Source: Gemmatales bacterium (GTDB taxonomy: Bacteria > Planctomycetota > Planctomycetia > Gemmatales > HRBIN36). From it: DNA of 64,000 nucleotides. Location: NCBI GenBank assembly GCA_041640595.1, contig JBEPZY010000004.1, forward strand, positions 226,373 through 290,372, written 5' to 3'. This document shows, in pieces, positions 390-62,112 of this stretch. The translations under genes and the position numbers were made by a program. The notes under the pieces are model-generated. The model was not told the origin of the DNA, did not search any database, and saw only the letters and a program-made list of their open reading frames with translations. Positions within the stretch are counted from its first letter, which is position 1, and each line of letters starts with the position of its first letter.

Positions 390-486
390 CCAGCGTGACA
401 ATGGTCGGAAAAGCGGGGCCAAGATTCCACCATAGGGGTGACGACAACGAAAACACCCGGGTCGCAGTGGTCGGAAAAGCAGGGCC
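390..486. repeat. ~31-bp direct repeat pair, 66-bp offset
   Basis: TGGTCGGAAAAGC(G/A)GGGCC at 402-420 and 468-486; similarity extends back to 390/456; 35-bp unique insert. Confidence 0.7.
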
Positions 487-508
487 GGGGGTGGTGTGGA
501 TGCGGACG

Positions 509-1366
509 TTAGTCGTAGGAGGCGGGGAGGCGATCGAGGATGGAACGCAAGGCAGCGACTGCTTTCGGGAAAAGGTCGGGACCAGTTACGCCCCCGGTGG
601 GTCCACCACCGAGCAGATGCGGTTCGAGAGTAGCAAATCCGCGATAGCCCCGTTGCACGGCATCGGCTAACACTTCGGGAATCCGTCCCTGCCCTTCGCC
701 TGCGGGACGAGCGTGGGTTTCGCCACGGACCCAGTCTTTGATGTGGAAATGAACCGTCCAGTCGCGGGTCTTGAGCCAGCCTTCCCAGGGATCGTAGCCG
801 CAAAAAACGTAGTTGGCCGGGTCGTACACCGCTCGGAATTGTGGATGGTTGAGGGTGGTCAGCAAATCCAGGACTCGCTCCGGGGAATCGCCGTAGATGC
901 GATGTTCGTTTTCGTGGAGCAAGCGAACACCAGCTTTCTCGGCAATATCGAGTTTGCGACGGAACCGGTCGAGTATTTCGCTGCGATAAGGCTGCCAATC
1001 AAAGTTACCCTCGGCCGAAGCGGGCGAGTCCGGGGGATAATAGCTGAAAACGCGAATGTTGCTGGTCTCGAAGACCTTGCAGAGCTCGACCGCGCGTCGG
1101 AAGCGTTGCAAGTGCGGCTCGAAGGGATCGCTGATCTTGACCTTGCCGATAGGTGAACCGATCGCGCTGATGCGAAAGCCGCGAGCGTCGAGTTGCCGCT
1201 TGATTTCGCGCACCTGGTCGTCGGTGAGGTCGAGCACATTGGTTTTCCAGACCGAACGCAGCTCGATGTGCCGAATACCGCAACTTTCCAGCACCGCCAG
1301 TTGCTCTTGCAGGTCGGGAGAAATTTCGTCCGCAAAAGCCGATAGGGTGAAATGTGCATTCGCCAT
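509..1366 (-). CDS. Sugar phosphate isomerase/epimerase (xylose-isomerase-like TIM barrel)
   Basis: SAFADEI start; LHENE, YDPANY, HFHIKD and LEPHL metal-ligand motifs. Confidence 0.9.
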   Translation of the reverse strand: MANAHFTLSAFADEISPDLQEQLAVLESCGIRHIELRSVWKTNVLDLTDDQVREIKRQLDARGFRISAIGSPIGKVKISDPFEPHLQRFRRAVELCKVFETSNIRVFSYYPPDSPASAEGNFDWQPYRSEILDRFRRKLDIAEKAGVRLLHENEHRIYGDSPERVLDLLTTLNHPQFRAVYDPANYVFCGYDPWEGWLKTRDWTVHFHIKDWVRGETHARPAGEGQGRIPEVLADAVQRGYRGFATLEPHLLGGGPTGGVTGPDLFPKAVAALRSILDRLPASYD

Positions 1367-1384
1367 AGTCGCCGCTCCTGTTGC

Positions 1385-4388: not shown

Positions 4389-7028
4389 ATGATGCTGCTT
4401 TGGAAGCCACGTCAGCTGTGGCCAAGTGGGGCAAGGTTTGGGCTGGTGCTATCGCTGGCCACGAGCCTGATCGTGATGCTGGCTGCGCAAACGCCTGTGG
4501 AGGAAAAGGAGGAGAGCAAGCCACCCAAATTGCGCAGCGATCTGCCCCTGTTGCCGCCGCTGGAGTCGCTGCAAAAGATCGTGGTGCAGCCGCTGGCCGA
4601 GTTATTGCTTGAAGCGGAACGTACCAGTCATCCGGCCGTCCGCGACTTACTGCGTCGGCTCGCTTATCCGCACGACCGGGTCGTGTTACGCAATGGCAGT
4701 GTTTTGCGCGTGGCGCCCCTGGCTCGTCCTTTGGAACAGGAAAAAGCGGCGCAACTGAAATTGCAAGTGATTACTCCCACCGGGCAGCTGGAGACGCAAC
4801 GTGCGGTTGCTCGCGACGAGGTGCTGCGGGTGGAGTATTTCGAGCGGTTTGCGATACAGGAAGTGTTGCAGCTAGGCCAGGAGACGGGTGCCGGTAAATC
4901 GCCTATGAAACAATCGCAGGTGCTGCGTCTGGCGGAGTTTGTCCTGGAACAGCTGCTGGCGTTTCACGGTCAGGGAATACGTGCGGAAGGTTGGGGCGAT
5001 GTTCAGAAGCAGTTGCAGCAGCAACTCAAGCAAACCCGGTTGCAATGTCTGGCGGCTTTGCAGCAGGAGAATCAGTGGCAGGAAGCCACCGCCTGGGCCG
5101 ATCGTCTCCTGGAGGAGTACAAGGGAGATGCGGAAATTGTCGCCCAGTTTCGTCAGCTTGTTGAAACCACCGCGGAACAGGCAATCGCCCGAAAGGATTA
5201 CGTTACGGTTCGGCGGGTCCTCGACCGCTTGAATGCCCGCTTGCCAGGCACTACCAGTCCCGCTCTGGAACGCTACCAGCGTGTCCTGTACGAACACGCT
5301 GAGTCGCACCTCAAACAGGCACAGCAACTGCAGGAAAAAAACGACTGGGTCTCCGCCTGGCTAGCCGGAGCCGAAGCCGCTCGCCTGGCACCGAACTGGG
5401 AGCGCGTGCAATTGTTCCAACGCCAGCTTTTACGCCGTTATCCCTTCCTTATCGTGGCAGTGCCGCAGTTGCCGCACACCACCTGGCCACCGCTGGCTAT
5501 GACCCTGAGCGACCAGATGGCTGTCAGCCTGCTTTACGAATGGCTCATTGAACCGCGTCAACCACCGCTGACCAGCGCAGGATACTGGAGCAGTCCGGGT
5601 TTTGCTCCTTTTCGGCAGCGCGGCTCGTGGTTTTTCAACTGGCCCAGTTACCCTCTGCTTTTCGCCACTTCGTCAGGAGAACGGCTGGCACGCTGGCAGG
5701 ATGTGCAGTTCAGCCTGCATTGTGCAGGCGACCCCCAGCTCCTGCTGTACGAACCCCTGTGGGACAAACGCTGGTCCACCTGGCACACCATCGAACTGTC
5801 CACCGGCCAGTGGCAGGTGCAGATGCCTTTGAGTTGGGGCGACCCGATGCGGCTTTTTTACCTCCCCTTGCTGCCAGCTACCGATGAGAACTCCTCGCAT
5901 CCGGGAGATTCTGGCAAGCAGCTTCCAGCTCCGTTTGTCGCCGGGACTGGCCCTTATGTTCTTGCGGAACGCTCGGATAACCAGTGGGTGTTTCGTGCTC
6001 GTCCCGGCTGGGTCCGACCCCATGCCCAGGAAGGGCCGCTTCTGCGAGAGATTCGCTTCCGCCGTTACACGGATATTCGCCAGGCTCACGAGGACCTGGA
6101 ATGCGGAGCCGTTCACCTGGTGGTCGGTCTGACGGCACGCGATGCCGATACCTTTGCGAACATTCCGCACGCACGCATTGTCTGTCTGCCCAGGCAGGAA
6201 GTTGCTCCCGGCGGTATCGCTTTCAGTCCCCGCGTGGCCATGCTGGCTTTCCATCGCCGCCGGCCCACCGTTCAGTCCGCGCTCCTGCGACAGGCCATCT
6301 CGGCCGCTCTGGATCGGCAAGCGCTCTTACAAACCCATTACCGCGGTCGCGACCCCACCACGTATCGCCTCACGGGAGGCCCGGCACCACTGGCCAGCTG
6401 GGCTTACCATCCCGACTATTCCCCGACGCTGCGTTCGCCTTATCATCCCGCAACCGCCCGCGAGCTTTTCCAGCGTCTTGCCGGGCCGGCTACGGGCAAG
6501 CCCGGTACTTCCGGAGCAAAACCGTCTTCGACCCTGCCCACGCTTTCCCTCTGGTATCCTCAAGAGGAAGCCGCAGTGCATTCCGTAGTCCAGGACATTC
6601 GCAATCAGCTTGCCGCTTACGGATTGAAGTTGGAACTTCGAGCCGCAACCGCTCAGGAAATCCTCGCCGCCTGGAAAACTCCTAACCCGCCTTACGACGT
6701 GCTGTTCTGGATTGCCGAATACCCTGCCGAAGGCATGACACCGTTCCGCTGGCTTAGTCCTGCCCCACCAGGCCAGGCCTGGCCCGACCCCTTCGGGCTT
6801 GCCGATGAGCCTACCGTTGCCCAGCTTCGCCAGCGCTACTGGCAAAGCGATGACCCGGCCAGCTCCCGGAGAACTCTCCACCAGCTTCACGCTCACCTCG
6901 TGGATCAGGCCTGGATTGTCCCGCTCTGGGAAATGGACCGTTTCGTGGTTGTCTGGAAGAATCTTGGTATCCCGTATTTCCACCCGTGCTGGGTTCTCCA
7001 CCACGTCGAATCCTGGACGTGGAACTAA
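4389..7028 (+). CDS. ABC transporter substrate-binding protein (family 5-like) with long helical/TPR-like N-terminal region
   Basis: Signal-like N-terminus; GTGPY, LRQAISAALDR, ARELF and WIVPLW motifs typical of SBP_bac_5. Confidence 0.75.
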   Translation: MMLLWKPRQLWPSGARFGLVLSLATSLIVMLAAQTPVEEKEESKPPKLRSDLPLLPPLESLQKIVVQPLAELLLEAERTSHPAVRDLLRRLAYPHDRVVLRNGSVLRVAPLARPLEQEKAAQLKLQVITPTGQLETQRAVARDEVLRVEYFERFAIQEVLQLGQETGAGKSPMKQSQVLRLAEFVLEQLLAFHGQGIRAEGWGDVQKQLQQQLKQTRLQCLAALQQENQWQEATAWADRLLEEYKGDAEIVAQFRQLVETTAEQAIARKDYVTVRRVLDRLNARLPGTTSPALERYQRVLYEHAESHLKQAQQLQEKNDWVSAWLAGAEAARLAPNWERVQLFQRQLLRRYPFLIVAVPQLPHTTWPPLAMTLSDQMAVSLLYEWLIEPRQPPLTSAGYWSSPGFAPFRQRGSWFFNWPSYPLLFATSSGERLARWQDVQFSLHCAGDPQLLLYEPLWDKRWSTWHTIELSTGQWQVQMPLSWGDPMRLFYLPLLPATDENSSHPGDSGKQLPAPFVAGTGPYVLAERSDNQWVFRARPGWVRPHAQEGPLLREIRFRRYTDIRQAHEDLECGAVHLVVGLTARDADTFANIPHARIVCLPRQEVAPGGIAFSPRVAMLAFHRRRPTVQSALLRQAISAALDRQALLQTHYRGRDPTTYRLTGGPAPLASWAYHPDYSPTLRSPYHPATARELFQRLAGPATGKPGTSGAKPSSTLPTLSLWYPQEEAAVHSVVQDIRNQLAAYGLKLELRAATAQEILAAWKTPNPPYDVLFWIAEYPAEGMTPFRWLSPAPPGQAWPDPFGLADEPTVAQLRQRYWQSDDPASSRRTLHQLHAHLVDQAWIVPLWEMDRFVVVWKNLGIPYFHPCWVLHHVESWTWN

Positions 7029-7182
7029 CCACCCAGGCTATTAGCCCGGCAAGCTACCACCGCTCCACCTCGTCGAATCCTAGAGCCGCAATTAACCACC
7101 CCACCACCAGCAACTGATCCGCAGCACTATAAGAATTATTTTAGGCCTCCGCCCCTTGGCGTCGGTGGTACTAACATTGCCC

Positions 7183-7289
7183 CTATGACAAGCATCCAAC
7201 GCCCCACATCTTACCCTCAAGGGTACTAACATTGCTCTCCGCGAGCACCGCGCACTATAATAAGCGTCCCATACCTCTGCGTCTTACCC
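7183..7289. repeat. Degenerate ~34-bp direct repeat pair, 72-73-bp offset
   Basis: CTATGACAAGCATCC...TCTTACCC (7183-7216) vs CTATAATAAGCGTCC...TCTTACCC (7255-7289). Confidence 0.45.
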
Positions 7290-7632
7290 CGCTTCGATTC
7301 CCGTTGGCGAGTTAGTCATCCGATTCAAGGGACTACAGCGTCCTAAGTCTCCGCACCCTAACCGGCCTTGATTCACTGACGGTGAAATGTTGGCCGCTAT
7401 CGTAATTGCTACGTCCCCACATATTAACCCACCTTGGTTGCCGCAAAGCCAATCCTTACTGCCACACTTGCTTGCTAACTTCTCGCAGAGTTGCTAACGC
7501 TGCAATGATATAGCTTTGTCGCCCTATTATTAGCGACAACCAACGGTGCAGCATGACTCGCATATTGGGACCACCGCGACGTTCTAATTTGCCGTCATGG
7601 CCTTTGTAAGCCCCGTCACCACGGGTGTTGTG

Positions 7633-10023: not shown

Positions 10024-10118
10024 CGCAGCGGATTATCGTAATTTCAACCGGCACGGTGCAGGACTACTGCGTACATTGATTGTCTGGGACGCAGGAAAGT
10101 ATCGTAATTTCAACTGGC
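10024..10118. repeat. ~29-bp direct repeat pair, 66-bp offset
   Basis: CGCAGCGGATTATCGTAATTTCAACCGGC vs CGCAGGAAAGTATCGTAATTTCAACTGGC. Confidence 0.7.
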
Positions 10119-10177
10119 TCCGACGGTCGCGGATTCGGCAAGCCAGTATTTGGAACATTCTCGATGGAGAAAGGGCC

Positions 10178-11638: not shown

Positions 11639-11903
11639 CGTAAATAGGAACGCATAGCATTCCGAGCACAAGATAACTGGTTGCAGGAACGTAAAAACGA
11701 AATTGTGGGTGTAGCGTAACAGAGATGCATAGCATTGCAAGCACAAGATAACTGGCCGGAGGAACGTAAGAACGAAATTGCGGGTGTGGCGTAACAGGGA
11801 TGCATAGCGTTGCAAGCACAAGATAACTGGTTGCAGGAACGTAAGAACGAAATGGTGGGCGTGGCGTAACAAGGACGCATAGCATTCCGAGCGCAAAATA
11901 ACT
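11639..11903. repeat. Tandem array, 75-bp period, ~3.5 units
   Basis: GCATAGC units at 11652, 11727, 11802, 11877; ~40-bp block x4 and ~36-bp linker x3. Confidence 0.95.
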
Positions 11904-11925: not shown

Positions 11926-12181
11926 GTTCCAATCCCACCGGCATGATGGCAGGTATCTTAGTTTGTGCGCAGGCTCCGGTCGCTGTACGGTGCGGAATGT
12001 TTCAATCCCACCGGCGTGATGGCAGGTCTGTTGGTTTGTGCGCAGACTCCGGTCGCTCTAGGGTGCGGAATGTTTCAATCCCACCGGCATGATGGCAGGT
12101 ATCTTAGTTTGTGCGCAGGCTCCGGTCGCTGTACGGTGCGGAATGTTTCAATCCCACCGGCATGACGGCAGGTATGCTAGT
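11926..12181. CRISPR. CRISPR-like mini-array: 4 x 37-bp repeat with 3 near-identical 36-bp spacers; no cas genes nearby
   Basis: GTTTCAATCCCACCGGCATGATGGCAGGTATCTTAGT at 11926, 11999, 12072, 12145 (73-bp period); array stops exactly after the 4th repeat; spacers are not diverse, so function is doubtful. Confidence 0.45.
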
Positions 12182-12223
12182 GATCGGGTTGAGCAGCCGT
12201 AACTCGCCAGCCTCGTAGGTTTC

Positions 12224-12687
12224 CATACCGACAGCACGTTCACCTATACACCGAACACGCACTATGTTGGCCCGGATAGCTTCACCTATACCTGGTCGGA
12301 TGGCCTGACTACCGGCAACACCGCCGCCGTCACTATAGATGTGTACAACAACGCGCCGTATGCCTACGATGCCAGCTTCAGCGTATTGGATGATCACGAA
12401 CCGACCGGCTACTATAGGTGGAGGTCTGCCCAGCTGGGCGCCATGCAGAGTTTCAGTGTATTGCACGACCGCGAGTTAGTCGGCCAGCTCCCTGTACGGC
12501 TATGATGCCGATGGCGATGCTATCACCGTGCCAATGCTTTCAAGCCCCGGCGTTTTCTCGGCGTAATCAGCCTCCGGCCCCACCAACGGGCCGGACCAAC
12601 GGTACACTAACACTCAATCCTGACGGCAGCCTTACCTATACATCGAACACGCACTATGTTGGAACGGATAGTTTCACCTATACCTGA
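12224..12687 (+). pseudogene. Remnant of a cadherin-like/Ig-like (Big_9/tandem-95-type) repeat surface protein
   Basis: TFTYTPNTHYVGPDSFTYTWSDGLTTGNTAAVTIDVYNNAPYAYDASFSV; frameshifted YGYDADGDAITV; NGTLTLNPDGSLTYTSNTHYVGTDSFTYT* with TGA where the first copy has TGG. Confidence 0.8.
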
Positions 12688-12887
12688 TTGGCTGGGTTGC
12701 TAACAGGCGAAGCGGCTAAGATTCTGAATCGCCGCTGGTGGTGGTAAGTTTTTCGAGGTCGGGGGATGGGATTGAGCTTGCCGATTTTGGCGGGTGAGGT
12801 GGCTTAACAAATCCTGCGGGTGTGCATTGCGATACGTGAGGCGGGCAGACGGTTTGCTCCATGCCGACCAGCAGCGCATAATTGCCG

Positions 12888-13212
12888 CAGAGCGGGTGCT
12901 GGTCGGTTGGCATCACGCCGACACCGAACAACCTGGAATAGAGGAACCATAGCGCTGAGGCAGAGCGGGTGCTGGTCGGTTGGCATCACGCCGACACGGC
13001 AGAACCTGTAAGAGCCGAACCATAGTGCTGAGGCAGAACGGGTGCTGGTCGGTTGGCATGACGCCGACACCGAACAACCTGGAATAGAGGAACCATAGTG
13101 CTGAGTCAGAGCGGGTGCTGGTCGGTTGGCATCACGCCGACACGGCACAACCTGGAGGAGAGGAACCATAGTGCTGAGACAAAGCGGGTGCTGGTCGGTT
13201 GGCGTCAGGCCG
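12888..13212. repeat. Tandem array, 73-bp period, ~4.5 units
   Basis: CAGAGCGGGTGCTGGTCGGTTGGCATCACGCCGACAC at 12888, 12961, 13034, 13107, 13180; internal GTCGG..CCGAC hairpin; linkers more variable than the block. Confidence 0.95.
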
Positions 13213-15102: not shown

Positions 15103-15477
15103 CTGCGTGGAGCGCTGGCATGTCGGAATCGCTGGGCCGTTCGTAAAACTGAGTGCGTTGCGATAGCGCGTACGGTTGGAGTTTCCTACGCCCGACTGCT
15201 CAGTGTGCCAAACTGTTGCGCCATCCTGTTGTGGCTGCCGGCAATACCAAGCCTGGCGTGGGGCTTGTTAGGGGAGAAACCATCCGCTGCTGCTGGTTAT
15301 CTCGAAGGACTGATTCCATTCAGGGCATGCCGCTGGCGTGTCGCTGGATGTGGCAGGCCGGCGGGAATTGGCACTGGCCACGTAGCCTGGTCCGTATCGC
15401 TGGGTTTGGTTAGTAGCATTGGCAAGCAGGGCAGGGCAAAGCGTGACGCGGAAAGCAGGCCTGACGCCAATCGCCAG

Positions 15478-15585
15478 GCAACCGCCCCATTTTCGGGATA
15501 ACCCCCTTCGAGCGATCGAAACGCGCTGGGACAGGCGGAGCAGTTCTGCAAGCAATCGGCCAATTTTCGGGATAACTTTCCCTTC
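15478..15585. repeat. Degenerate ~33-35-bp direct repeat pair, 74-bp offset
   Basis: GCAACCGCCCCATTTTCGGGATAAC vs GCAATCGGCCAATTTTCGGGATAAC (TTTTCGGGATAAC at 15490 and 15564). Confidence 0.6.
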
Positions 15586-19679: not shown

Positions 19680-20001
19680 GGACCTGGCTCCAGAACCGCT
19701 ATCTTCTCCGTCCGCATTATACCGGAAGCTGGCCGATTGCGAACGCCATCAGAGGCGGCACCATGAGTGCACGCGATAGTGGCACCGATACCCGGCATCC
19801 TGGCAGCGGGCGATCAGCTCTTCACCGTCCGACACGCCAGCGGCATCGATGCTCGGCATCCAAGATATGGTTGCCGGCCGAATGTTCGACGGCTCAGTCC
19901 AAACGACAACACCGGCTGGGCCGGCCATTCCAGCACTGGTGTCTGGCGGGATTCGGCCTAAAATAGTCCGAGCGAAAGTCGGTGCGGTTGTCGCTGCGCC
20001 G

Positions 20002-23000
20002 ATGGATTCAGCCTGGACAGAAGCGAGTTCCAGGAGGTCGCCTGTGTCGCAAGAGCAACCTAAAGGTCTGGCCGCTGTCATTGACGTGTTGCGTGAAAAA
20101 TACGATTGGAAGCTCGACCAGGAAATCGGTCGTGGCGGGTTTGGCGTGGTGTTTCGCGAACAGGTGAACGGCATGATGCGGGCCGTCAAAATCACTCTCG
20201 ATCCGCTCGATCGGCTCACCGCAGGGCTTAGCGATGTCCAGCGTCAGCAAGCACTGCAACGGGAACGCGAAGCCCTGGAATTGCTCACGCGGATCGGCAA
20301 CCATCCCCATCTGTTGACACTCATCAGCTGGGAGGAAGTGTTGGGCCACCTGGTTACGGTTTGGGAATACGCGGCCGATGGCACGTTACTGGATCGGCTG
20401 CGGGAGCATCAGCGGCAAAACGGACAATGCGGATTGCCGCTGGATCAATTGATCCCGTGGATGGAACAGGCGGCGGAAGGCCTCGAGTTTCTCAACAGCC
20501 GGGGGATTTACCATCGCGACATCAAACCGCAAAATTTGTTTCTGGTCGGCGAGCAGGTGAAAGTCGGCGATCTGGGATTTTTGAAGCTGGCGGGGCTGAG
20601 CACGGCATCGCAGACGGGCGTGGGCACGGTTGGCTATCTGCCGCTGGAGGCGTACCCGCGGAGTGCGAACGAGAAGGGTCGGTTGCATGAAACGATTGAT
20701 GTGTACGGACTGGCGGCGACGTATGTCCATCTGCGCACGGGCAAGCCGCCTTTTGGCACGAGCGAGCTGATGATTATTGATCGCCAGAAACGTGGTCAGC
20801 CGTGCACCGATGGCATGACGCCGGCCGAAGCCGAGTGGGTGCGTCAAGCCTTGTCGCCCCGTCCGGACCAACGCCCCCGATCGGTCAGGGAATTCGTGCG
20901 AGAACTCGGCAATCGTTTGTCTGCCAGTGAGCTGAGCCAGCGCGTAAGCATCCGGGAGTTCGGTTTCTCGCCCTCGCCTATTGAGTTGCGTATCGCCAGG
21001 CCACGGCAAGTCGAGGGCAGTACGCTGCCACCATTGCCCAGAGAACTGGCGCAAGCGCAGGCGCAGCTGCTGGCCCTGCCGGAATTGATCCGCCAGGTGC
21101 AAGACGGGACGCACCCGGCGTTGCAGCGCCACTGGCAGGTCGTGCAGCAAGCCGAGCAACAACTGCAACAGTTAAAAGCAGCTTTGCAAGCGACACCGCT
21201 GCCAACCGGTCTATCCGTTGCCGATGCGCAAACCATATTCAAGACACTCCAACGGGACCCCGAAGCTTCTCTGGTAGGGTTGTATCGGCTGGCAGGCAAT
21301 GTCTCTCGATGGGCGTTTGCTCACTGGCTGAAGATGGCCAAGTCCTGCGTTCTGGCCCAGCGCCAGTATGAGCAACTCCGACAGCAGTACCTGAGTTACG
21401 CTCATGAACAGCTGCAGAGAATGCAGCAGCTGTTAGAGCGGCTCAAGGAAGAAGTAGGCCGGCTTCAATACCGGGACCTGGTACAGTTGCTTGCCGGGTA
21501 TCGTGCACGAATTGGCACTGGCAGCGAGACGCTTCCGGTGGAGTTGTGGATTCAGCTAGGCCCGGAATTAGAACGGCGCTACATCGGCTGGAACGCACAA
21601 ACGCTGCTCGAGCAAGCCGAATGGGCCTGGGGAGCAACGGTTCAGTTCCTGAAGCAACAGCGGCGCCGGAGGCGGCTGCGCCTTGTCCTTGGCCTGCTTA
21701 TACTCGTGCTGGCCTTCATCTTGGGAATCCTAGTGTATGCCTGGCCTCCTTCGTTGCAAGTATCCGCCACGCAACCTGACCAGCCCGTTGCTGGCGAACC
21801 GTGGGAGGTGGAATTCCGAACCTGGTCACTTTGGGGTCGGCCCGTGTCTGTCGAATGGCGCTATGCGGGCGAGACGCAGTGGCAACGGCTGGAGGAGCCG
21901 AAACTGCGCATCCCGGAGATTAAAGCCGACAGTCTAGCCCTGGAATTTCGCCCCGTGGACAGCAAAGGTTTTCTCGGTAACGCGATCCAACAACGAGTTT
22001 ACGTTCCCGTTCCGACGCTGAAAATCACGAAACAGGATCCGCCGAATGGCCCGATAGCGGGCGAGCCGTTTACCATTGAGTTCGAGGCGACTTCACCGGT
22101 GGGCCGGACCGTCCACGTCGAGTGGCGCTACGCTGGCGATACACAGTGGCGGCGACTGTCCGAGCAAAAGTTGCATATTGCGGAGGTCAAAGGCGACGCT
22201 CTGGCTCTCGAATTCCGCGCCGTGGACAGCAAGGACTTTATCGGTTCTGCTCTCGAAGGGCGCTGGCGGGTCTTGCCTCCTGCTCCGTCGCTGAAAATCA
22301 CCAAGCAGGATCCGCCGAATGGGCCGATAGCGGGCGACCCGTTCACCATTGAGTTCGAGGCGACTTCACCGGCGGGCCGGACCGTCCACGTCGAGTGGCG
22401 CTACGCTGGCGATACACAGTGGCAGCGACTGTCCGAGCAAAAGTTGCATATTCCGGAGGTCAAAGGCGAAACTCTGGCTCTCGAATTCCGCGCCGTGGAC
22501 AGCAAGGGCTTCGCCAGCACCGTGAGCCCGTACCTCTTGCTTGTATTCGCAGATAAGGACAGCTACGCGCGCCGCGAAGTGCGGCTCTTCACGGGGCACG
22601 AGAATCGGGTCTGGAGCGTCGCGGTGACGCCCGATGGCAAATACGTCGTTTCGGGAAGCGACGACAAAACGGTGCGTTTGTGGGACTTGGCGACGGGGAA
22701 AGAAGTGCGGCGGTTCACGGGGCACTGGCCTTCGGTCTATAGCGTTGCGGTGACGCCCAATGACAAATACGTCGTTTCGGGAAGCGGGGGCTACACGGTG
22801 CGGGTGTGGGAGCTGGCGACGGGGAAGGAAGTGCGGGAGCTCACGGCGCACGAGGGTTCGGTCAATAGCGTCGCGGTGACGCCCGATGGTAAATACGTCG
22901 TTTCGGGAAGCGGGGACAAAACGGTGCGTTTGTGGGACCTGGCGACGGGGAAAGAAGTGCGGCGGTTCACGGGGCACGGCGATTCGGTGAGGACCGTCGC

Positions 23001-23460
23001 GGTGACGCCCGATGGCAAATACGTCGTTTCGGGAAGCTGGGACAACACGGTGCGTTTGTGGGAGCTGGCGACGGGGCAAGAAGTGCGGCGGTTCACGGCG
23101 CACGAGGGTTGGGTCAGGAGCGTCGCGGTGACGCCCGATGGCCAATACGTCGTCTCGGGAGGCTATGACAACACGGTGCGTTTGTGGGAGCTGGCGACGG
23201 GGAAAGAAGTGCGGCGGTTCACGGGGCACCGGAGCGCGGTCTCGAGCGTCGCGGTGACCCCCGATGGCAAATACGTCGTTTCGGGAAGCGACGACAACAC
23301 GGTGCGTTTGTGGGACCTGGCGACGGGGAAAGAAGTGCGGCGGTTCACGGGGCACGGCGATTCGGTGAGGACCGTCGCGGTGACGCCCGATGGCAAATAC
23401 GTCGTTTCGGGAAGCGGGGACGAAACGGTGCGGGTGTGGTACATCGGCGACCTGAAGTGA
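20002..23460 (+). CDS. Membrane Ser/Thr kinase: kinase, coiled-coil, TM helix, 3 Ig-like repeats, 7-bladed WD40
   Basis: IGRGGFGVVF, AVK, HRDIKPQN, DLG, GTVGYLP.E; TM near 21676-21744; 273-bp repeats at 22012/22285; 126-bp WD repeats from ~22570; start uncertain (ORF open from 19849). Confidence 0.92.
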   Translation: MDSAWTEASSRRSPVSQEQPKGLAAVIDVLREKYDWKLDQEIGRGGFGVVFREQVNGMMRAVKITLDPLDRLTAGLSDVQRQQALQREREALELLTRIGNHPHLLTLISWEEVLGHLVTVWEYAADGTLLDRLREHQRQNGQCGLPLDQLIPWMEQAAEGLEFLNSRGIYHRDIKPQNLFLVGEQVKVGDLGFLKLAGLSTASQTGVGTVGYLPLEAYPRSANEKGRLHETIDVYGLAATYVHLRTGKPPFGTSELMIIDRQKRGQPCTDGMTPAEAEWVRQALSPRPDQRPRSVREFVRELGNRLSASELSQRVSIREFGFSPSPIELRIARPRQVEGSTLPPLPRELAQAQAQLLALPELIRQVQDGTHPALQRHWQVVQQAEQQLQQLKAALQATPLPTGLSVADAQTIFKTLQRDPEASLVGLYRLAGNVSRWAFAHWLKMAKSCVLAQRQYEQLRQQYLSYAHEQLQRMQQLLERLKEEVGRLQYRDLVQLLAGYRARIGTGSETLPVELWIQLGPELERRYIGWNAQTLLEQAEWAWGATVQFLKQQRRRRRLRLVLGLLILVLAFILGILVYAWPPSLQVSATQPDQPVAGEPWEVEFRTWSLWGRPVSVEWRYAGETQWQRLEEPKLRIPEIKADSLALEFRPVDSKGFLGNAIQQRVYVPVPTLKITKQDPPNGPIAGEPFTIEFEATSPVGRTVHVEWRYAGDTQWRRLSEQKLHIAEVKGDALALEFRAVDSKDFIGSALEGRWRVLPPAPSLKITKQDPPNGPIAGDPFTIEFEATSPAGRTVHVEWRYAGDTQWQRLSEQKLHIPEVKGETLALEFRAVDSKGFASTVSPYLLLVFADKDSYARREVRLFTGHENRVWSVAVTPDGKYVVSGSDDKTVRLWDLATGKEVRRFTGHWPSVYSVAVTPNDKYVVSGSGGYTVRVWELATGKEVRELTAHEGSVNSVAVTPDGKYVVSGSGDKTVRLWDLATGKEVRRFTGHGDSVRTVAVTPDGKYVVSGSWDNTVRLWELATGQEVRRFTAHEGWVRSVAVTPDGQYVVSGGYDNTVRLWELATGKEVRRFTGHRSAVSSVAVTPDGKYVVSGSDDNTVRLWDLATGKEVRRFTGHGDSVRTVAVTPDGKYVVSGSGDETVRVWYIGDLK

Positions 23461-54509: not shown

Positions 54510-54879
54510 GTTTTTTTCTCCCGCAACTCGGTTTGGCCTCAGACCAGCACCTACTCTTTATCATAATCCGAGTTGAGGCAATATCAAAGTGGCGGATTAA
54601 GGAATTCCCCGAGCGAGTCTGGCCAGAGACAAATCCGTTCTGCGGGGAGATTTTGTCAGGCCGGTCATGGGCATAGCGGAACGGGGTCGCGGCTGTTATG
54701 CAAAACCGCTCTAGCGTTCTTCGCCAATGGTTGCTATACGTTCGGGCCGACAAGCCTGCTCGAAGACGTGATTGACGACACTTCGCCGACGCCGACCGAT
54801 GGCGAAACTGCCATCGTGCCCACTCGCGGGGAGACGAGTCCCGGCGTCCAGGTTGCCAATCTCCTCAAGGAGACGACCG

Positions 54880-56634
54880 ATGCACGGTAAGCCAAACTGG
54901 GGTTTATTGGCCGCCACGGTGCTGGCAACTGCAATTGCCACCCTGGCTGTGCTGGAATACCTCCACCGCCATCCCGACTGTCGCCTGGGTCGCTGGTGGC
55001 ACAGCGCCCAGCAAACCGTTTCGCCCACCGAGCCGGCCACACCTCGGCTGCAACTTCGCGCCTGGCAAAGCAGCGACTCATCGCCCACCGCCGAACCCGA
55101 TTCGCCTCCCTCCATTCCGCCCGACATACTGCAACAAAGCCTGCGCGAATTGCGGTTGCTCGACCAGTTTGCCTCGGGGTCTGCGGCGTCGGAACCGGCT
55201 GTAGCATCCGCCCCGGCAGTGGATGAGTTTTGTCCGGAAAAAATACCTGTGCCGCCCCGCTGTGTCCTGGCTGATGCCGACACACCGCAGGAACGCATCG
55301 CCATTCCCGATGGCCGAACCCTGGCTCCTGTCGTGAGCGTCGAAACGCTCCCGGTTGCGCCCAAACCGGTGATTCCGGAAAACACGCCGGATGACCTCGA
55401 TGACGACACCGCCACACAAACCGAACCGGCTGACGACACACCAGGCGATCCGGAGCAATCCGAACCAGCTGAGGAAACAGTGCCGGCTTGTCGGCAAAGT
55501 TCCGCCTCGCCGACACACAAATTCTCGACCGGCGGTGCTCGCGTGGTTGCCGTAGCCAACGGCCCCTGCTGTACGGATGTGGATATCGTGGTCGAGGTGC
55601 GAAACCAGCTGAACAATTTCCTCAGCTGGCTCTGCGGTTGGTGCCAGCCTACGGAAGACACCTGTTGCCGCTCCACTTTCCACACCCGAGTATCGAAGAG
55701 CGGGGATTGTTGCTGCCGATGTGAGCAAGCGAAAAAGCAAACCGATTGCGATACCGGAGATTCACCCGTAAAACCACACCATGCCCGCAACTCTGAAGCA
55801 GACCAATCGGGCCAGAATTGCTCACACCGTGCAGCCTCGCCACCGGTTCAGCAGAAGCTGGTGCTTCGGATTTATCCCGTGGCTGATCTCGTTGAGTCAG
55901 CAGAGGACGGCCTCGATCTCGAAGCCCTGGTGGCGAAGCTGTTGGGTAGCCAGTGTTGCCCTGACACTCGACTCCATTATCCTTGCCCTACATACAGCCC
56001 GCGCGACGAAGAGGCTTGGGTGGCTTATCACAATGGTTGTCGAGCTCTGGTGGTGATGGAAACATGCGAAAATCACGGCAGGATCGCGGCATTCCTCAGC
56101 GAAATGCGTAAAGCCGCCCGGATTAAGAGTGAACTGGAGCGTGCGCGTCGCTGTCAGGAAGCATCGGAGTCCACGCGAGAACTACCCTGCCCCGTCGGCG
56201 AACCCGAACGTGTAATCGTTGTGCCGATCGTCCGGCCGGTCCTCGTGCCGGTAGCCGTGCCTGTACCCGTTGGGGTACCCGATACAGAATTGCCGCCGCC
56301 ACAATTTCGCGTTCCCGATCCAGGCTCCGAGGACGAACATTGCCCTGAATGTCCGGCCCGGCGATTCGTGCTGCCCACTACGCCAGAACAACTCCCGGAT
56401 TGCCAGGGCATGCCTGCGGAAATTCTGCCCATGCTTCGCCAGCTCTTTGAACAGTTGCGCGGCGCGATTCCCAACGTAACACCGGCATGCCCGCAGTACC
56501 CGAAGCGAAGTTCCTGCCCGTCCACGCTTCCGGTGTTGCCATCCGACCAGGAAGATGGCGAGGATGATTGTCCGCCATACGACGACGAAGACCTCCAGCC
56601 TCTCGAAACCGATCTCTCCCCACCGATCGGCTAA
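54880..56634 (+). CDS. Cys/Pro-rich membrane-anchored protein with a secretin N-domain-like segment
   Basis: AAGGAG RBS before ATG 54880; N-terminal TM; VLRIYPVADLV...ALVVMET.ENH.RI..FL.EMR. Confidence 0.65.
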   Translation: MHGKPNWGLLAATVLATAIATLAVLEYLHRHPDCRLGRWWHSAQQTVSPTEPATPRLQLRAWQSSDSSPTAEPDSPPSIPPDILQQSLRELRLLDQFASGSAASEPAVASAPAVDEFCPEKIPVPPRCVLADADTPQERIAIPDGRTLAPVVSVETLPVAPKPVIPENTPDDLDDDTATQTEPADDTPGDPEQSEPAEETVPACRQSSASPTHKFSTGGARVVAVANGPCCTDVDIVVEVRNQLNNFLSWLCGWCQPTEDTCCRSTFHTRVSKSGDCCCRCEQAKKQTDCDTGDSPVKPHHARNSEADQSGQNCSHRAASPPVQQKLVLRIYPVADLVESAEDGLDLEALVAKLLGSQCCPDTRLHYPCPTYSPRDEEAWVAYHNGCRALVVMETCENHGRIAAFLSEMRKAARIKSELERARRCQEASESTRELPCPVGEPERVIVVPIVRPVLVPVAVPVPVGVPDTELPPPQFRVPDPGSEDEHCPECPARRFVLPTTPEQLPDCQGMPAEILPMLRQLFEQLRGAIPNVTPACPQYPKRSSCPSTLPVLPSDQEDGEDDCPPYDDEDLQPLETDLSPPIG

Positions 56635-56823
56635 CCAGTTTGTCCGGGGTGTGCCGTCGGCTCATACGCGCTGCCTCTTGAAACCGAACTGTACGCAGTG
56701 GTCGCCTGACCAGCTCCAGGGATCGCCTAACAGGAGAACCATCGCAAAAACGGTATCCGTTTTGCCGTCCAACTCCCAGGCTGCGAACTCATCAGCAGCA
56801 TCCAGCCCGAGCCGCTAGCGCCA

Positions 56824-57235
56824 GATCAAGCACCGTCGCCATTAGATGGAAAGCAGCTCGCGTCCGATCAAGAGCGGCTAACGTCGGATCAAGATCGGCT
56901 GACCGCAGATTAGAAACGGTTCGCGTCAAATCAAGAGCGGGGGGCGTCAGCCCCCCGTGGTGTCGCACACGCTAGTGCACGTGCATTTCCAACACATTAC
57001 CGACAACGTTCGTACCACAGAACCATGGCGGGCTGACGCCCGCCGCTCCTGATTCGGTGGTCTGTTCGCCGAACATTATTCGCTCCGCTCTGCAGGCGCG
57101 ACCCGTTACCGAACCACGGCGGGCTGACGCCCGCCGCTCTTGATTCGGCGGTCGGTGTTCGCCGAACATTATTCGCTCCGCTCTGCAGGCGCGACCCGCT
57201 ACCAACCCACGGCGGGCTGACGGCAACCGCTCTTG
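56824..57235. repeat. REP/REPIN-like palindrome cluster 3 with a 21-bp periodic lead-in
   Basis: Inverted REP doublet 56932-57050 matches 23849-23969 in reverse; further copies at ~92-bp period. Confidence 0.9.
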
Positions 57236-57350
57236 TTTGTCGGTTCGGTTGTCGCTGAACGATGCTCGGTTCTCAACGTAGATATGGCAGACCTCTTAAG
57301 TTGCTTTTACGCCATCGGACAAACTTCCCGATTATCTGCCACCGGCCAAT

Positions 57351-57562
57351 GATCACTGGCCACCGAATTTCGCTCCGTTAGCGCGCAAACTTTGCCGATG
57401 TCCGATCACTGGTTCCAGATCACTGACGACCGAATTTCTCTCCGTCAGTAGGTGAACTCTCCCGATAGCCAGCCACCGGCCACCGATCACCGGCCACTGT
57501 TCACTGATCACCGGCCACTGTTCGCTGATCACCGGCCACTGTTCGCTGATCACCGGCCACTG
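57351..57562. repeat. 31-bp repeat pair (67-bp offset) followed by a 21-bp tandem (GATCACCGGCCACTGTTCGCT)n
   Basis: 57351/57418 blocks with a 36-bp insert; 3-4 tandem units at 57485-57562. Confidence 0.8.
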
Positions 57563-57600
57563 AAGGCTAGCTGGGCTGGTGTCCAGCCATCCGGCGCGTG

Positions 57601-58968
57601 TCAGATGCGGCGGAGGTGATAAATCACACGTTCGGCAAACTCGCTGCTCGATGCTCCTGCTTCCGGGCCGTAACCAGGATACTGCCGGGCGATGTCGTAA
57701 GTAACGTAAAGTTTTTGACCCGGTCCGCGTGCGGCAATCTCTTCGCTCTCGGCAAAGGTCATTTCCAATCCGCGATAGACCAGATTGGCTGCTTCGTGCC
57801 AGCCGAGGTGCTCTAACAGCAAGGCCCCGGAAAGGATGACGGCACTGGGATTGGCCATGTTTTTACCCGTGTATTTCGGCGCAGTACCGTGAGTGGCCTC
57901 GAACATAGCAGCCTGGTCGCCGATATTGGCTCCGGCTGCCAGTCCGATACCTCCCACCAGAGCCGCCACTGCGTCCGACAGGTAGTCGCCATTAAGATTC
58001 GGCGTGGCAATGACGCTATACTCATCCGGCCGGAGCTGGATTTGCTGAAACATGCTATCGGCAATGCGGTCGTTGACCAAAACCTTGCCCGCACGCTCAG
58101 CTCCGCGAGCGACTTCCTCTTCCGTAACCACAAAGGGGCGGAACTCGGTTACGGCCACCTCGTAACCCCAATCTTTGAAGGCTCCCTCGGTGAACTTCAT
58201 AATGTTGCCTTTGTGCACCAGCGTGACGCTCGGCAGTTTTTTGTCAATGGCGTAGCGGATGGCCATTCGCACCAGGCGTTTCGTACCTTCGGGGCTGATC
58301 GGTTTGATGCCGATACCAGCCGAGAGCGGAATGTTGTAGCCCAGCGAATTGATAAACTCGATCACCTTGCGGGCACGCTCCGTGCCACTCTTGAACTCGA
58401 TGCCACAATAAACATCCTCGGTGTTTTCGCGGAAAATGACCATGTTGACCTGGTGGGCCCGCTTATTGGGAGCCTCGATGCCTCGAAAATACCGCACCGG
58501 TCGCACACACGCATACAGGTCAAAGCGCATCCGCAGATAAACGTTGATACTGCGAAAACCTCCACCGATTGGCGTGGTGAGTGGCCCTTTGAGTCCGACG
58601 CGGTAATATTCGAAGGCCCGCAGCGTGTCATCCGGGAGGTAAAGTTTACGCTGATCCTCCTCGCTCAGATTGTTGACCTCTTCGTCGCGGACATGGGGAT
58701 AATAACGCTCCCGGGCAGAATCTCCCGCGTAAATGTCGAACCAGACGATGCGGCGCCGACCGGCATACGCATGTTCGACGGCCGCATCCAGAACCCGCAC
58801 CGCACAGGTGGTGATCCCCGGCACCGTGCCGACATCTTTCCCGATTCCATCACCACGGATCAGACACACAATCGGATCGTCCGGCACCTGCCAGCGTCCC
58901 TGAGCATCCACCTGAATGCGATTTCCCTGACTCGGCGGCGTCAATCGTTCGAAAGTTGGAACGCTCAT
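57601..58968 (-). CDS. icd: NADP-dependent isocitrate dehydrogenase
   Basis: GDGIG, KGPLTTPIGGGFRSINV, FRENTED, HKGNIMKFTEG, NLNGDYLSD, FEATHGTAPKY. Confidence 0.95.
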   Translation of the reverse strand: MSVPTFERLTPPSQGNRIQVDAQGRWQVPDDPIVCLIRGDGIGKDVGTVPGITTCAVRVLDAAVEHAYAGRRRIVWFDIYAGDSARERYYPHVRDEEVNNLSEEDQRKLYLPDDTLRAFEYYRVGLKGPLTTPIGGGFRSINVYLRMRFDLYACVRPVRYFRGIEAPNKRAHQVNMVIFRENTEDVYCGIEFKSGTERARKVIEFINSLGYNIPLSAGIGIKPISPEGTKRLVRMAIRYAIDKKLPSVTLVHKGNIMKFTEGAFKDWGYEVAVTEFRPFVVTEEEVARGAERAGKVLVNDRIADSMFQQIQLRPDEYSVIATPNLNGDYLSDAVAALVGGIGLAAGANIGDQAAMFEATHGTAPKYTGKNMANPSAVILSGALLLEHLGWHEAANLVYRGLEMTFAESEEIAARGPGQKLYVTYDIARQYPGYGPEAGASSSEFAERVIYHLRRI

Positions 58969-58978
58969 GATCGTTTGC

Positions 58979-59588
58979 CCCTTTGTCGCGGTTCTGCTTA
59001 GCGACGACCGGACAGAGCCACATCCCATCTTGGTAGCCGGGTCTGCTCAGCCCTTTGCCTGAAGTTCCGCTAAGCGACGACCGGACAGTCTATTGCACTA
59101 ATTTCCCTCCCCCTGTCAAGATAGCACCCGACAAGCCTGCCAGCACGTTGAGGAAAAGTACCGCGATTTCACCCGTTTCCCCAGCCTCATCTTCCAGTTC
59201 GATCCGACCGGCTGCCAGCACGTTCAGGAAAAGTACCGCGATTTCACCTCCCCGTGTCAAGATAGCACCCGGCAACCGGCAGTGCCCGGTAATTACCCTT
59301 CCGGTGATTCTTCTCCATTGCGCCAGCGTGGTGTTCCCCCCGAGCGCCAGACCGCTTATCCATGCGAATAGATCAACGCCATCCGGTAGAACCGGGCGCC
59401 AGACGAACCACATTTCGCAAACCACCGAAATCCTCACCGATAGTGGGGCTTCGATTGCAAGGCGCCAGACGAACCACATTTCGCAAACCACGGGCGACAC
59501 AATTAGCACAGTTGTGTTCCGAAGCTGTGGATGGAAAGGCTCGCCTCCTCCGTTGCCTGGCGACACGATTAGCACGGTGGCGTTCCGA
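58979..59588. repeat. Five direct-repeat pairs (offsets 73, 141 nested, 75, 66, 66)
   Basis: 58979/59051, 59101/59241, 59137/59212, 59395/59461, 59493/59559; each encloses a 35-38-bp unique insert. Confidence 0.9.
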
Positions 59589-59898
59589 GCTGACGCATCA
59601 CTGGGAAAGTTTGCCTAGTGACCATTTTGGGGACGAAAGCGGTGCGGCCGTGTTTTGGGCGAAACCCATTCCTGATGCCGTGCTGCCTGCCGCGGGCGAG
59701 AAGCATGGCAATGTTGCGTTCAGTTCGGTTGCGGCTGGAGATTGTCGCATGGCCGGCCGAGGGGCAAGTTGATTTCAGAATTTTCTGAACATATTGACGA
59801 ACTGCGTTGGGGTTGGTAAACTTGTCTGAGGATGCTGGACGCGGGTCGTTTTTCAACAACGAGACAGAAGCAGCAACGCTTCGAAATCGGCCAAGTGG

Positions 59899-60083
59899 AT
59901 GCACGGGGCTTGGCTGTATGGAAAGTGCGGCGGAGGGGCTGATCTGCACTACGCGGCCAGCCCATAGAAGTAATGCATGGGGCTTGGCTGTATGGAAAGT
60001 GCGGCGGCGGGGCTGATCTGCACTACGCGGCCAGCCCATAGAAGTAATGCACGGGGCTTGGCTTATCGAAAGTGCGGCGGAGG
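59899..60083. repeat. Tandem array, 74-bp period: 38-bp block x3 and identical 36-bp linker x2
   Basis: ATGCACGGGGCTTGGCTGTATGGAAAGTGCGGCGGAGG at 59899, 59973, 60047. Confidence 0.93.
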
Positions 60084-60185
60084 TCAGCTAGACCCGAACG
60101 GCGAAGCTGCCCAAGTGAATACGCTGGCACCTGGCTGGGCGAAGCGGGATGATCGCCGATTATCTTTGCCCAAAGGGGGATTGCC

Positions 60186-61736
60186 ATGTTCCGCGGGCTG
60201 CACAAGCTGCCACCATTGACTGCAGCGTGGTTTGCGTTGCTATGCGTCTTGTTGCTGGCTTTGCGCAGCCTGGCCGATTACTCCCTCTCGCAACCGCATC
60301 AATGGTTCGACTTCGGACGCTGGCGCTGGCTGCACTGGCCGGACTACTTTGCTCTGGCCGGCAGTTTCGTTAGCGACGACTGGCAATTCCGTTTGCTAAC
60401 CTGGGGCGTATGGCCTGGGTATTTGCTCGTGCAGGGCCTGGTGGTCGTCATGCGGTTGCAGACGCTGCGTCTGCCGAAACGGTGGGTGCTGTTCCTTCTG
60501 GTGCCAGTGGTGAACCTGGTTTTCCTGCTTGTGCTAGTGCTGGTGCCCATTTTCCTGGAGAAAAGACTGCTGTCGGCACGACACCGCCCATCGGCCTGGC
60601 GGTTGCCCGAAACGAGTGGCGAGGTGGTACCGATGGCATCACCCGGCGAATCTCCGCCAGCTGCGACGCAGACCGGTACAGAAACTCCGACCGACGAACT
60701 GACCGCATTAGCTGCCGCATCGTCAACCAACCGCTGGCAAGCCTGGCACAAAGAGTCGGCTCGGCACAACCTGGTCAATGCGCTGATACTGACGCTTCTA
60801 CTGTTGGTTCCGCTGGGCTGGCTGCTGGTTTATGTCTCGGCAGACTTGAGCCAACAATACGGGATCACCTTATTCGTTCTGGGCCCATTCGTAGCCGGCT
60901 GGTTGACCGCGATGATCCTGCACCGGGCAGCGGGGGCGTCGCTGGGAGACTGTCTGTTGGGCTTTCTGATGGTGATGATACTCGGCGGGGCGGTTTTGCT
61001 GGCAGTGGGGATGGAGGGGTTGGTGTGCTTGCTGATGGCGTCGCCGCTGGTGATTACCGTGGGCATGGCCGGTTGCGCTATCGGCTACCTGTTCGCCCGG
61101 AGCACGTGGCTGGCCAATTTCCGCACCTGGTCGGCAGGCTTGCTGGTGATGGTCTGGCCGATCGGTCTGGCCACGGAAATCATCTCCTCGCCGGGACCCA
61201 CATTGCACGCCGTCCGCACGGAAATCATCGTCCAGGCTCCGGTCGAAGTGGTCTGGAAGGCGACCATCTCGTTCGAGGAATTGCCGGAACCCAGGGAAGA
61301 AATGTTTCGGCTGGGAGTGGCGTATCCGGTAGCGGCGAAGATTGCCGGACAAGGTGCGGGAGCGGTGCGTCATTGCATTTTCAACACCGGCAGCTTTGTC
61401 GAGCCGATTCAGGTCTGGCAACCGCCGTTTTTGCTCCGCTTTGCCGTGACGGATCAACCGCCACCTATGCAGGAACTTTCCCCCTGGCCAATTGATCCGC
61501 CGCATTTGCACGGCTGCCTGGTGTGTCGGCAGGGAGAGTTTCGCCTGGAGCCGATGGGTCCCCATCAGACGCGCCTGATTGGCACGACCTGGTACGAGTT
61601 GCACATGTGGCCGGAATGGTACTGGCATGTGTGGAGCGACTATTGCATTCACCAGATTCACAACCGTGTGTTGCGGCACATCGCCAATCTCGCCGAAACG
61701 CACGCGGCAGAAGATGCCGCCAACCCCCGGCCCTGA
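60186..61736 (+). CDS. Multi-pass membrane protein with C-terminal SRPBCC/START-like domain
   Basis: Several TM helices; EGLVCLLMASPL, VRTEIIVQAP.E.VW, GAVRHC.F.TG.FVEPI, IHQIHNRVLRHI. Confidence 0.8.
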   Translation: MFRGLHKLPPLTAAWFALLCVLLLALRSLADYSLSQPHQWFDFGRWRWLHWPDYFALAGSFVSDDWQFRLLTWGVWPGYLLVQGLVVVMRLQTLRLPKRWVLFLLVPVVNLVFLLVLVLVPIFLEKRLLSARHRPSAWRLPETSGEVVPMASPGESPPAATQTGTETPTDELTALAAASSTNRWQAWHKESARHNLVNALILTLLLLVPLGWLLVYVSADLSQQYGITLFVLGPFVAGWLTAMILHRAAGASLGDCLLGFLMVMILGGAVLLAVGMEGLVCLLMASPLVITVGMAGCAIGYLFARSTWLANFRTWSAGLLVMVWPIGLATEIISSPGPTLHAVRTEIIVQAPVEVVWKATISFEELPEPREEMFRLGVAYPVAAKIAGQGAGAVRHCIFNTGSFVEPIQVWQPPFLLRFAVTDQPPPMQELSPWPIDPPHLHGCLVCRQGEFRLEPMGPHQTRLIGTTWYELHMWPEWYWHVWSDYCIHQIHNRVLRHIANLAETHAAEDAANPRP

Positions 61737-61817
61737 TTCCACTCGGGGCCGACGATGAAGATGATTGGTCCGCAAAGCAGCACCTTGCAGCGACCCGGCG
61801 ATCCGGAGGCGGCCATC

Positions 61818-62112
61818 GGTAAGCGAAACGGACTCGGCGAACGATTACCTTAGACGAGACAGTCTAACCAGGATGTACCGACTGGTAAGCGAAACGGGCT
61901 CGGCGAACGATGCCATGCAGGTTGGGCCTGACCACAAACTCGGTACGCTGGTAAGTGAAGCGGGGTGGATTAAGGCTGGCGGCGCAGATTGAAGATGACA
62001 GAAGCTGCTACGGGGCCGAGAAATGCAAGCCTGATGAACTGTTACCGGTGTGCGCTCCTGGCTCAGCTTTTGCAGGAGCTGCTATCGGTCTGAAAAACGT
62101 AAGCGTACTGAA
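61818..62112. repeat. 28-bp block x3 at 66-bp period, plus a degenerate ~40-bp pair at 74-bp offset
   Basis: GGTAAGCGAAACGG(A/G)CTCGGCGAACGAT at 61818, 61884 and partial at 61950; 61999-62038 vs 62073-62112 match at 29/40 positions. Confidence 0.8.

Follow-up and report, generated by a model that had tools for sequence, protein, structure and literature searches.

What has left the same two spacings, time after time, along the genome of a hot-spring bacterium? The question is raised by a window of 64,000 nucleotides (nt) from the Gemmatales bacterium assembly GCA_041640595.1 (contig JBEPZY010000004.1, positions 226,373 to 290,372), part of a 4.45-Mb draft genome in 42 contigs (G000 among the genomes compared here). 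In this window a block of sequence recurs after an insert, the two copies lying either 66-67 or 72-75 base pairs (bp) apart. A preliminary description proposed that two integrases with different rulers, of the kind that serve CRISPR arrays, had written spacer-sized DNA into non-CRISPR sites. We find that the block-insert-block units very probably arose when the two Cas1-Cas2 integrases of this genome placed spacers off target, and that the products became fixed. The geometry of the units, the existence of empty sites and the origins of some inserts support the proposal, to which a later amplification step has to be added for the multi-unit arrays.

The two-copy sites were re-aligned at their positions in the window, with 2000 random placements at an unrelated offset serving as control, and the best control scores were 19 of 30 for a 30-nt stretch and 24 of 37 for a 37-nt stretch. 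All 11 two-copy sites, a nested site and four arrays are present, the two-copy sites within a few bases of where they had been described, and ten of the 11 exceed the best random controls. The sites of the 66-67-bp class at 390, 10024, 57351, 59395, 59493 and 61818 display 24, 24, 26, 30, 26 and 27 matches over 30 nt, respectively. Four of them are 30+36 units of offset 66, at 390-486 (blocks 391-420 and 457-486), 10025-10120, 59493-59588 and 61818-61914, and a 30+37 unit of offset 67 occupies 57352-57448. The youngest scar in the window, at 59395-59491, has a 31-bp block with both copies identical, an insert of 35 bp and an offset of 66. In the 72-75-bp class the sites at 15490, 58979, 59137 and 61999 give 25, 28, 36 and 26 matches over 37 nt, and extend over 15475-15585 (offset 74, with 28 of 37 matches in the best register), 58979-59088 (offset 73), 59137-59248 (offset 75, a 37+38 unit) and 62005-62115 (offset 74). 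The eleventh site, 7183/7255, is weak. This candidate of the 37-nt class (7183-7291, offset 72-73) has 20 of 37 matches ungapped and 27 of 34 aligned pairs when one gap is allowed.

The nested site is also real. A 34-nt block at 59101 recurs at 59241, and the outer blocks (59101-59134 and 59241-59275) of this older scar of the 30-nt class (59101-59275) are now 140-141 bp apart, a distance that corresponds to about 66 bp plus the 75 bp of the later 59137/59212 event by which the scar was split. The 37-bp target of that inner event covers most of the older insert.

A more sensitive scan of the window, which accepted 30-nt stretches with at least 22 identical positions or 37-nt stretches with at least 26, gave seven hits at offsets 65-68 and ten at 72-76, with none at most other offsets between 40 and 124. 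It added a scar of the 30+37 type at 7004/7071 (7004-7100, offset 67, 24 of 30 matches) and a candidate of the 37-nt class at 56596/56671 (56596-56707, offset 75, 27 of 37). Each of these blocks duplicates the 3' end of the longest local open reading frame (ORF), 4389-7028 in the first case and 54772-56634 in the second. A 69-bp repeat at 52492 and a 72-bp hit at 42700 were rejected as coding repeats. The sites had been called intergenic, but those at 58979 and 10024 fall within the longest possible ORFs of neighbouring genes and are not strictly so.

Does the genome encode enzymes with rulers of the right length? The preliminary description had predicted cas1 and cas2 genes and true arrays of 30+36 and 37+36 units elsewhere in the genome. 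Two loci with matching units were found, and their arrays are 30+36 and 37+37. A 30-nt repeat is present in 317 and 27 copies on contigs C8 and C10, in units of 65-68 bp, and a 37-nt repeat in 247 copies on contig C1, in units of 72-76 bp. Spacers are 35-38 nt long in the 30-nt arrays (335 of 341) and 35-39 nt in the 37-nt array (241 of 246). Both arrays are adjoined by cas1 (E values 1.4e-84 and 5.3e-74) and cas2 (1.1e-20 and 1.0e-11). Next to the 30-nt array are genes that match type I-B Cas7, Cas5, Cas3, Cas4 and Cas1, with a type III-B Cmr set after them, whilst the genes ahead of the 37-nt array are cas2, one that encodes a group-II-intron-like reverse transcriptase, and cas1. In the direction leading away from the cas genes, the final 11 letters of the two repeats are identical, the last eight of which we take to be the usual CRISPR RNA (crRNA) handle of such systems. 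In one part of the true 37-nt array (C1:360100-360800) several neighbouring spacers overlap in sequence, as if repeatedly captured from one short target region.

The same unit lengths stand out among the direct repeats of the genome once these true arrays have been masked, in agreement with the peaks that had been anticipated at 66 and 73-75 bp. A search with a 12-nt exact seed over offsets of 25-160 returned 1582 direct-repeat segments, 194 of them at offsets 65-68 and 252 at 72-76. Clustered at each offset separately, which may count a locus of variable offset twice, these form 189 and 218 loci, respectively, against a mean of 3.9 over 53 control offsets. Non-redundant clustering gives 381 loci at offsets 64-77, of which some 55 are estimated to be background (14 offsets with about four loci each). 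Units of 65, 66, 67 and 68 bp occur 36, 166, 109 and 26 times in the true arrays and at 27, 79, 54 and 29 loci outside them. For 72, 73, 74, 75 and 76 bp the figures are 12, 81, 99, 38 and 11 in the arrays and 35, 55, 62, 50 and 16 outside, so that the modes, 66 and 74, are the same in scars and arrays. Among 290 single-segment loci the block length reaches a ceiling near 30-33 nt where the offset is 65-68 and near 35-40 nt where it is 72-76. In both classes, therefore, the duplicated block has the length of a resident repeat, 30 or 37 nt, and the inserts follow the resident spacer-length distribution, with a somewhat broader spread outside the arrays. A peak at offsets of 88-93 bp was considered as a third class and rejected, as all of its loci carry one GC-rich hairpin sequence and represent a dispersed element family. 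Peaks at 126 and 144 bp are coding repeats.

Blocks and inserts were analysed in 102 clean single events, of which 55 belong to the 30-nt class and 47 to the 37-nt class. Their blocks are unrelated to the CRISPR repeats and to each other, and the inserts are likewise unrelated to each other. Twelve inserts match elsewhere in the genome and 90 do not. The insert at C2:174386 has 30 of 31 letters in common with a spacer of the 30-nt array, in a frame shifted by 2 nt, and lies in the same orientation relative to the ..AC end of its block as the spacer does in the array. By sequence this looks like two separate captures from related targets. Another insert is identical at 33 of 34 positions to a stretch of the 23S ribosomal RNA (rRNA) gene, and one at 33 of 33 to part of a 406-codon ORF on contig C1.

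Contig C15 of the same assembly (locus L072) is 9585 bp in length with 49.8% G+C compared to about 58% for the genome. It takes 33 of the 35 off-array hits of spacers from the 30-nt arrays, and 39 spacers match it with an E value of 0.01 or less. These matches are mostly on one strand, and 29 of the 39 protospacers have CC at positions -3/-2, that is, a 5' CCN flank. None of the nine ORFs on C15 matches PHROGs. Comparison with Pfam identifies a matrixin-type peptidase domain and, below the cut-off (E value 7.8e-4), a match to protein-primed family-B DNA polymerase. Probably, then, this host has in C15 a virus or plasmid that is as yet unclassified. Two independent scar inserts match it, one from an event common to C2:407699 and C3:561426 (28 of 30 letters) and the other from a unit at C3:328836 (31 of 34). 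The origin of inserts had been expected to reveal a shared protospacer adjacent motif (PAM). One insert does have its target in common with a true spacer, two match C15 and two derive from the cell's own genes, but no shared PAM was demonstrated. An exact scan of metagenome contigs with a 29-nt core of the youngest insert in the window retrieved the same locus alone (L073, identical over the aligned stretch) and gave no protospacer.

The second of the C15-matching units lies at C3:328801-328980. It is a repeat-spacer-repeat unit, with blocks four to five letters from the 30-nt repeat, and it sits between two copies of a resident sequence of about 30 bp placed some 133 bp apart. Possibly a prespacer with a repeat in it seeded this scar, which then acquired a real spacer.

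Integration predicts that sites without an insert should hold the block once. Relatives had been proposed as the place to look. In those searched, divergence at the orthologous loci is too great (the neighbouring gene has about 78% identity), and the empty sites come instead from paralogs within this genome and from a metagenome contig. In three of four paralogous pairs the sequences align on both flanks and exactly one block plus insert is missing: 67 bp is absent from C2:398240-398400 compared to C3:568849, 73 bp from C2:80270-80440 compared to C3:419213 and 66 bp from C2:80245-80400 compared to C1:321769. The block in these empty paralogs is ordinary resident sequence in a single copy. The fourth pair, C2:224486 with C3:553620-553780, was dropped because the upstream flank is not homologous.

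Contigs of four runs from four studies were placed on window positions 57200-62300. A 327-nt contig of run X3 covers 59241-59394 and 59461-59633, skipping exactly 66 bp at the youngest scar; at least 154 letters lie on each flank of the joint, and 31 letters fit on either side of it. Runs X2 and X8 have contigs with the insert, and contigs of X2 and X4 break at the block edges, as the filled allele would cause in k-mer assembly. This points to scars that are still polymorphic among wild hot-spring populations. Breaks in X4 and X8 contigs at 59166 and 59226 are uninformative with respect to the 59137 scar.

Targets whose ends resemble those of the repeats are weakly preferred. The ending ..AC is found at 23 of 110 block ends in the 30-nt class (p 4e-8) and 18 of 94 in the 37-nt class (p 4e-6), compared to 5.6% expected in non-coding DNA, and ..AAC occurs at nine of 94 block ends against 1.7% expected. 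Blocks that agree with the repeat's 3' end in at least two letters number 33 of 86 and 31 of 81 (38%) as opposed to about 10% at shifted control positions, and the block of the array at 11926, on the minus strand, finishes with all 11 of the letters common to both repeats. With respect to placement, a crude gene model (2931 genes, 80.3% coding) leaves 78 of the 102 clean events fully in non-coding DNA and five fully inside predicted genes. Probably this is because hits in genes have been removed by selection. Clustering of events is modest, with 27.1% having a neighbour within 400 bp compared to a mean of 14.9% and a maximum of 23.5% in 200 random non-coding placements.

These features suggest the following mechanism. 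Each integrase would attach a prespacer that has been captured at two staggered points, one repeat length apart, of a target other than CRISPR, the spacing being 30 bp for the type I-B module beside the C8 array and 37 bp for the cas2-reverse transcriptase-cas1 module beside the C1 array. Gap repair would then duplicate the 30- or 37-bp target around a spacer of 35-38 bp. We infer these enzymatic steps from their products. Arrays in which one insert is repeated, the four of the window among them, would have arisen afterwards by slippage or unequal recombination between blocks.

Tandem Repeats Finder was used to call those four arrays. They are a 75-bp unit of the 37-nt class amplified to 3.4 copies at 11652-11903 (87% matches, remainder 27 bp), a 73-bp unit in 3.4 copies at 11926-12175 (90%, 31 bp), a 73-bp unit in 4.5 copies at 12887-13212 (88%) and a 74-bp unit, again of the 37-nt class, amplified to 2.5 copies at 59899-60083 (94%, 37 bp). 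All are non-coding, and the whole unit is repeated with 87-94% matches and without insertions or deletions. The preliminary description had assigned them n+1 blocks and n inserts, which fits the remainders of 27-37 bp, but it had also taken the inserts to be unique, and for multi-unit arrays that is incorrect since whole units recur. The window arrays repeat the same insert and were therefore amplified after integration. At 12887 units 1 and 3 carry one version of the insert and units 2 and 4 another, and the two 146-bp two-unit pieces are 94% alike, which indicates a two-unit duplication. From the remainders and these shared insert versions it would follow that unequal recombination or slippage between blocks made the multi-unit arrays and preserved the n+1/n layout.

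Multi-unit or clustered loci number 79 genome-wide. In about half of them the whole unit is repeated in tandem and in the rest the blocks alone match. At C8:39397-39840, about 1.3 kb beyond the Cmr genes, six 36-nt blocks with a period of 74 bp enclose two alternating inserts. This is a new two-spacer mini-array, the result of two acquisitions followed by amplification as a two-unit piece. A few sites took a second, different spacer or a nested event. Scar events account for about 29 kb in 254 loci. It had been suggested that integration extended over a long time; block identity across the 102 events ranges from 80 to 100%, with nine pairs identical, a spread that would fit the suggestion.

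Is the load of scars a property of the family or of this lineage? Among 21 genomes searched, this one counted, 13 have cas1. Genomes of the same genus are 77-78% identical in the neighbouring gene, and their intergenic DNA does not align. Samples of 0.2-0.4 Mb from three relatives were scanned. G002, of the same genus and with one cas1 of the 37-nt type, has three plausible old scars of the 37-nt class and no plausible ones of the 30-nt class in 206 kb; G004 has at most one scar in 386 kb, and G006 stays close to background over 400 kb. The same scan applied to 400-kb samples of the genome under study finds 24-82 hits per class. Four scars lie in the 29.5 kb of small contigs with cas genes from G001 and G003. 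The scar load is lineage-specific.

How else might such units arise? Ordinary tandem duplication or minisatellite formation by replication slippage, with half of each unit decayed later, is very unlikely as an explanation of the whole. Slippage or unequal recombination is needed in any case for the whole-unit tandem repeats, which comprise the four window arrays and roughly half of the 79 multi-unit or clustered loci, but slippage gives no reason for two sharp offset classes equal to the resident CRISPR unit lengths, nor for block lengths capped at the two repeat lengths. It is contradicted by the three paralogous empty sites, where the insert is wholly absent instead of present once, and among the inserts are some with matches to a foreign element, to a true spacer or to distant genes. 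A slippage minisatellite would have an unconstrained period and a unit made of duplicated resident sequence; here the periods are quantised and the empty sites lack the insert. We give the same small chance to an unknown mobile element or non-Cas integrase that inserts a cargo of about 36 bp with duplications of 30 or 37 bp, the CRISPR dimensions being coincidental. That a source was found for few inserts (the 12 of 102 with matches elsewhere) would suit such an enzyme, yet it must match two repeat lengths and two spacer-length distributions by chance. Moreover the inserts are mutually unrelated and so not copies of one element, one overlaps a genuine spacer and two match the main target of the array, and the block ends resemble repeat ends.

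Slighter still is the probability that the units are decayed old CRISPR arrays, or transferred orphan arrays, rather than insertions into native DNA. There are loci which could be read in this way: an array on C20 (1210-1581) has a variant of the 30-nt repeat with different spacers, and the blocks at C3:328836 have four to five mismatches to that repeat. A bona fide array, though, has one conserved repeat and different spacers, whereas the window arrays repeat the whole unit and their blocks vary by locus. The blocks of the 102 clean events are related neither to the repeats nor to each other, empty paralogs hold the block once as ordinary resident sequence, and two blocks in the window include the 3' end of the longest local ORF. 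Finally, a 42-contig draft reconstructed from a metagenome, with repeats of a type that short-read assemblers find hard, could contain errors of assembly or binning. The chance that the scars are such artefacts is negligible. Most block pairs differ by a few substitutions, unlike an artefact, and contigs from other studies span window scars unchanged, that of X2 over 57200-59424 and that of X8 over 61797-61972. Another public contig, which may be from a related sample, is identical over the 59395 scar locus.

Off-target integration by the resident Cas1-Cas2 enzymes is the reading we prefer, and several observations weigh against it. The link to Cas1-Cas2 would be drawn from geometry and a handful of traceable inserts, and several of the 12 insert matches are paralogous copies of one event. 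Where the C3:561426 insert matches C15 there is no 5' CCN flank, and at the other three of the four traceable inserts the presence of this flank depends on where boundaries are placed, these being uncertain by 2-4 nt. The empty allele of X3 is a single contig from k-mer assembly with a depth of 3.9, and a secondary deletion between identical blocks would look alike. The non-coding placement depends on the crude gene model. Lastly, a 37-nt system by itself is not enough to generate a high scar load, since G002 carries one with just three plausible old scars in 206 kb.

Comparisons with known systems inform on what is new here. Nivala, Shipman and Church are said to have described in 2018 (Nat Microbiol 3:310) off-target spacer integration that led to 'neo-CRISPR' loci in Escherichia coli with over-produced type I-E enzymes. 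As there, a spacer is found outside an array, a target of repeat length is duplicated and the unit is able to seed a new array. In contrast, the events in our genome are natural and fixed and number several hundred in one wild genome, two integrases with rulers of 30 and 37 bp operate side by side, and many units were later amplified. A preprint citing the E. coli work (10.1101/148544) describes its evidence from two other species as 'circumstantial evidence'. With Cas1-Cas2 of Pyrococcus furiosus in vitro, repeat motifs and spacing set the two integration points (PMC6698737). The ruler-like spacing, the guidance of sites by short repeat motifs and the use of off-target products to inform on specificity are in common with our observations. 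That study is biochemistry on designed substrates, whereas we describe a genomic footprint in which the terminal ..AC or ..AAC preference is the sole motif. In Streptococcus thermophilus ectopic acquisition occurs inside CRISPR arrays (PMC7999890, PMC5338259); there too the spacer is placed elsewhere than at the leader-proximal repeat, but it enters a genuine repeat, by those accounts, while the targets described here are unrelated non-CRISPR sequences.

The units also resemble bona fide or orphan arrays in their length and in the layout of n+1 repeats and n spacers. They differ in that each locus has its own 'repeat' of resident sequence, there is mostly one insert and crRNA processing is not expected. 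The window arrays, in which units of 73-75 bp follow one another head to tail, with recombination or slippage as the probable cause of their expansion, are similar to minisatellites or variable number tandem repeats, from which the period, quantised to CRISPR unit lengths, and the block-length remainder at the array end distinguish them. We consider this to be a known process at work in nature on a very large scale, and not a system of a new kind. No paper on a wild genome with scars at this scale was found in the full-text literature searched, which leaves most subscription journals outside it.

If integration is indeed the source, the scars would constitute a natural map of Cas1-Cas2 errors, made in non-coding DNA at targets ending ..AC or ..AAC, in which each class controls for the other because the two integrases have different rulers. 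The errors would copy the cell's own genes, rRNA included, as well as invader DNA. The scars would be a source of new tandem repeats and candidates for the early stages of new CRISPR arrays, and they carry a warning for annotation, where units of this sort should be taken neither for CRISPR arrays nor for ordinary minisatellites. Whether off-target integration is still ongoing in this lineage, building non-coding DNA and giving birth to new arrays, is a further matter; we hold it to be possible but somewhat short of an even chance. The loci at C8:39397 and C3:328836 resemble intermediate stages of array birth. Were it so, the genome would offer a natural time series of how CRISPR arrays and tandem repeats of 66 and 74 bp arise, and its 10- to 30-fold excess relative to a congener would suggest that a fidelity factor has been lost.

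Other repeats occur in the window. The GC-rich hairpin sequence responsible for the 88-93-bp offsets is a dispersed element found in both orientations, at 23663-24176, 31163-32284 and 57017-57249, often as pairs or tandem units 92-93 bp apart. It looks like a repetitive extragenic palindromic sequence or a miniature inverted-repeat transposable element and is unrelated to the CRISPR-sized scars. A 21-bp tandem repeat at 57481-57562 (3.9 copies) is polymorphic, run X2 being one 21-bp unit short, and run X3 has other rearrangements at 57363-57551. The 126-bp offset peak has its source at 19849-23460, in a 1203-codon ORF with seven 126-bp repeats of 79-90% identity, presumably a WD40-type repeat protein. 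Between two of the arrays, at 12180-12720, there are fragments resembling a repeated-domain gene broken by stops, and within them a stretch of about 50 nt recurs at about 12240 and 12630.

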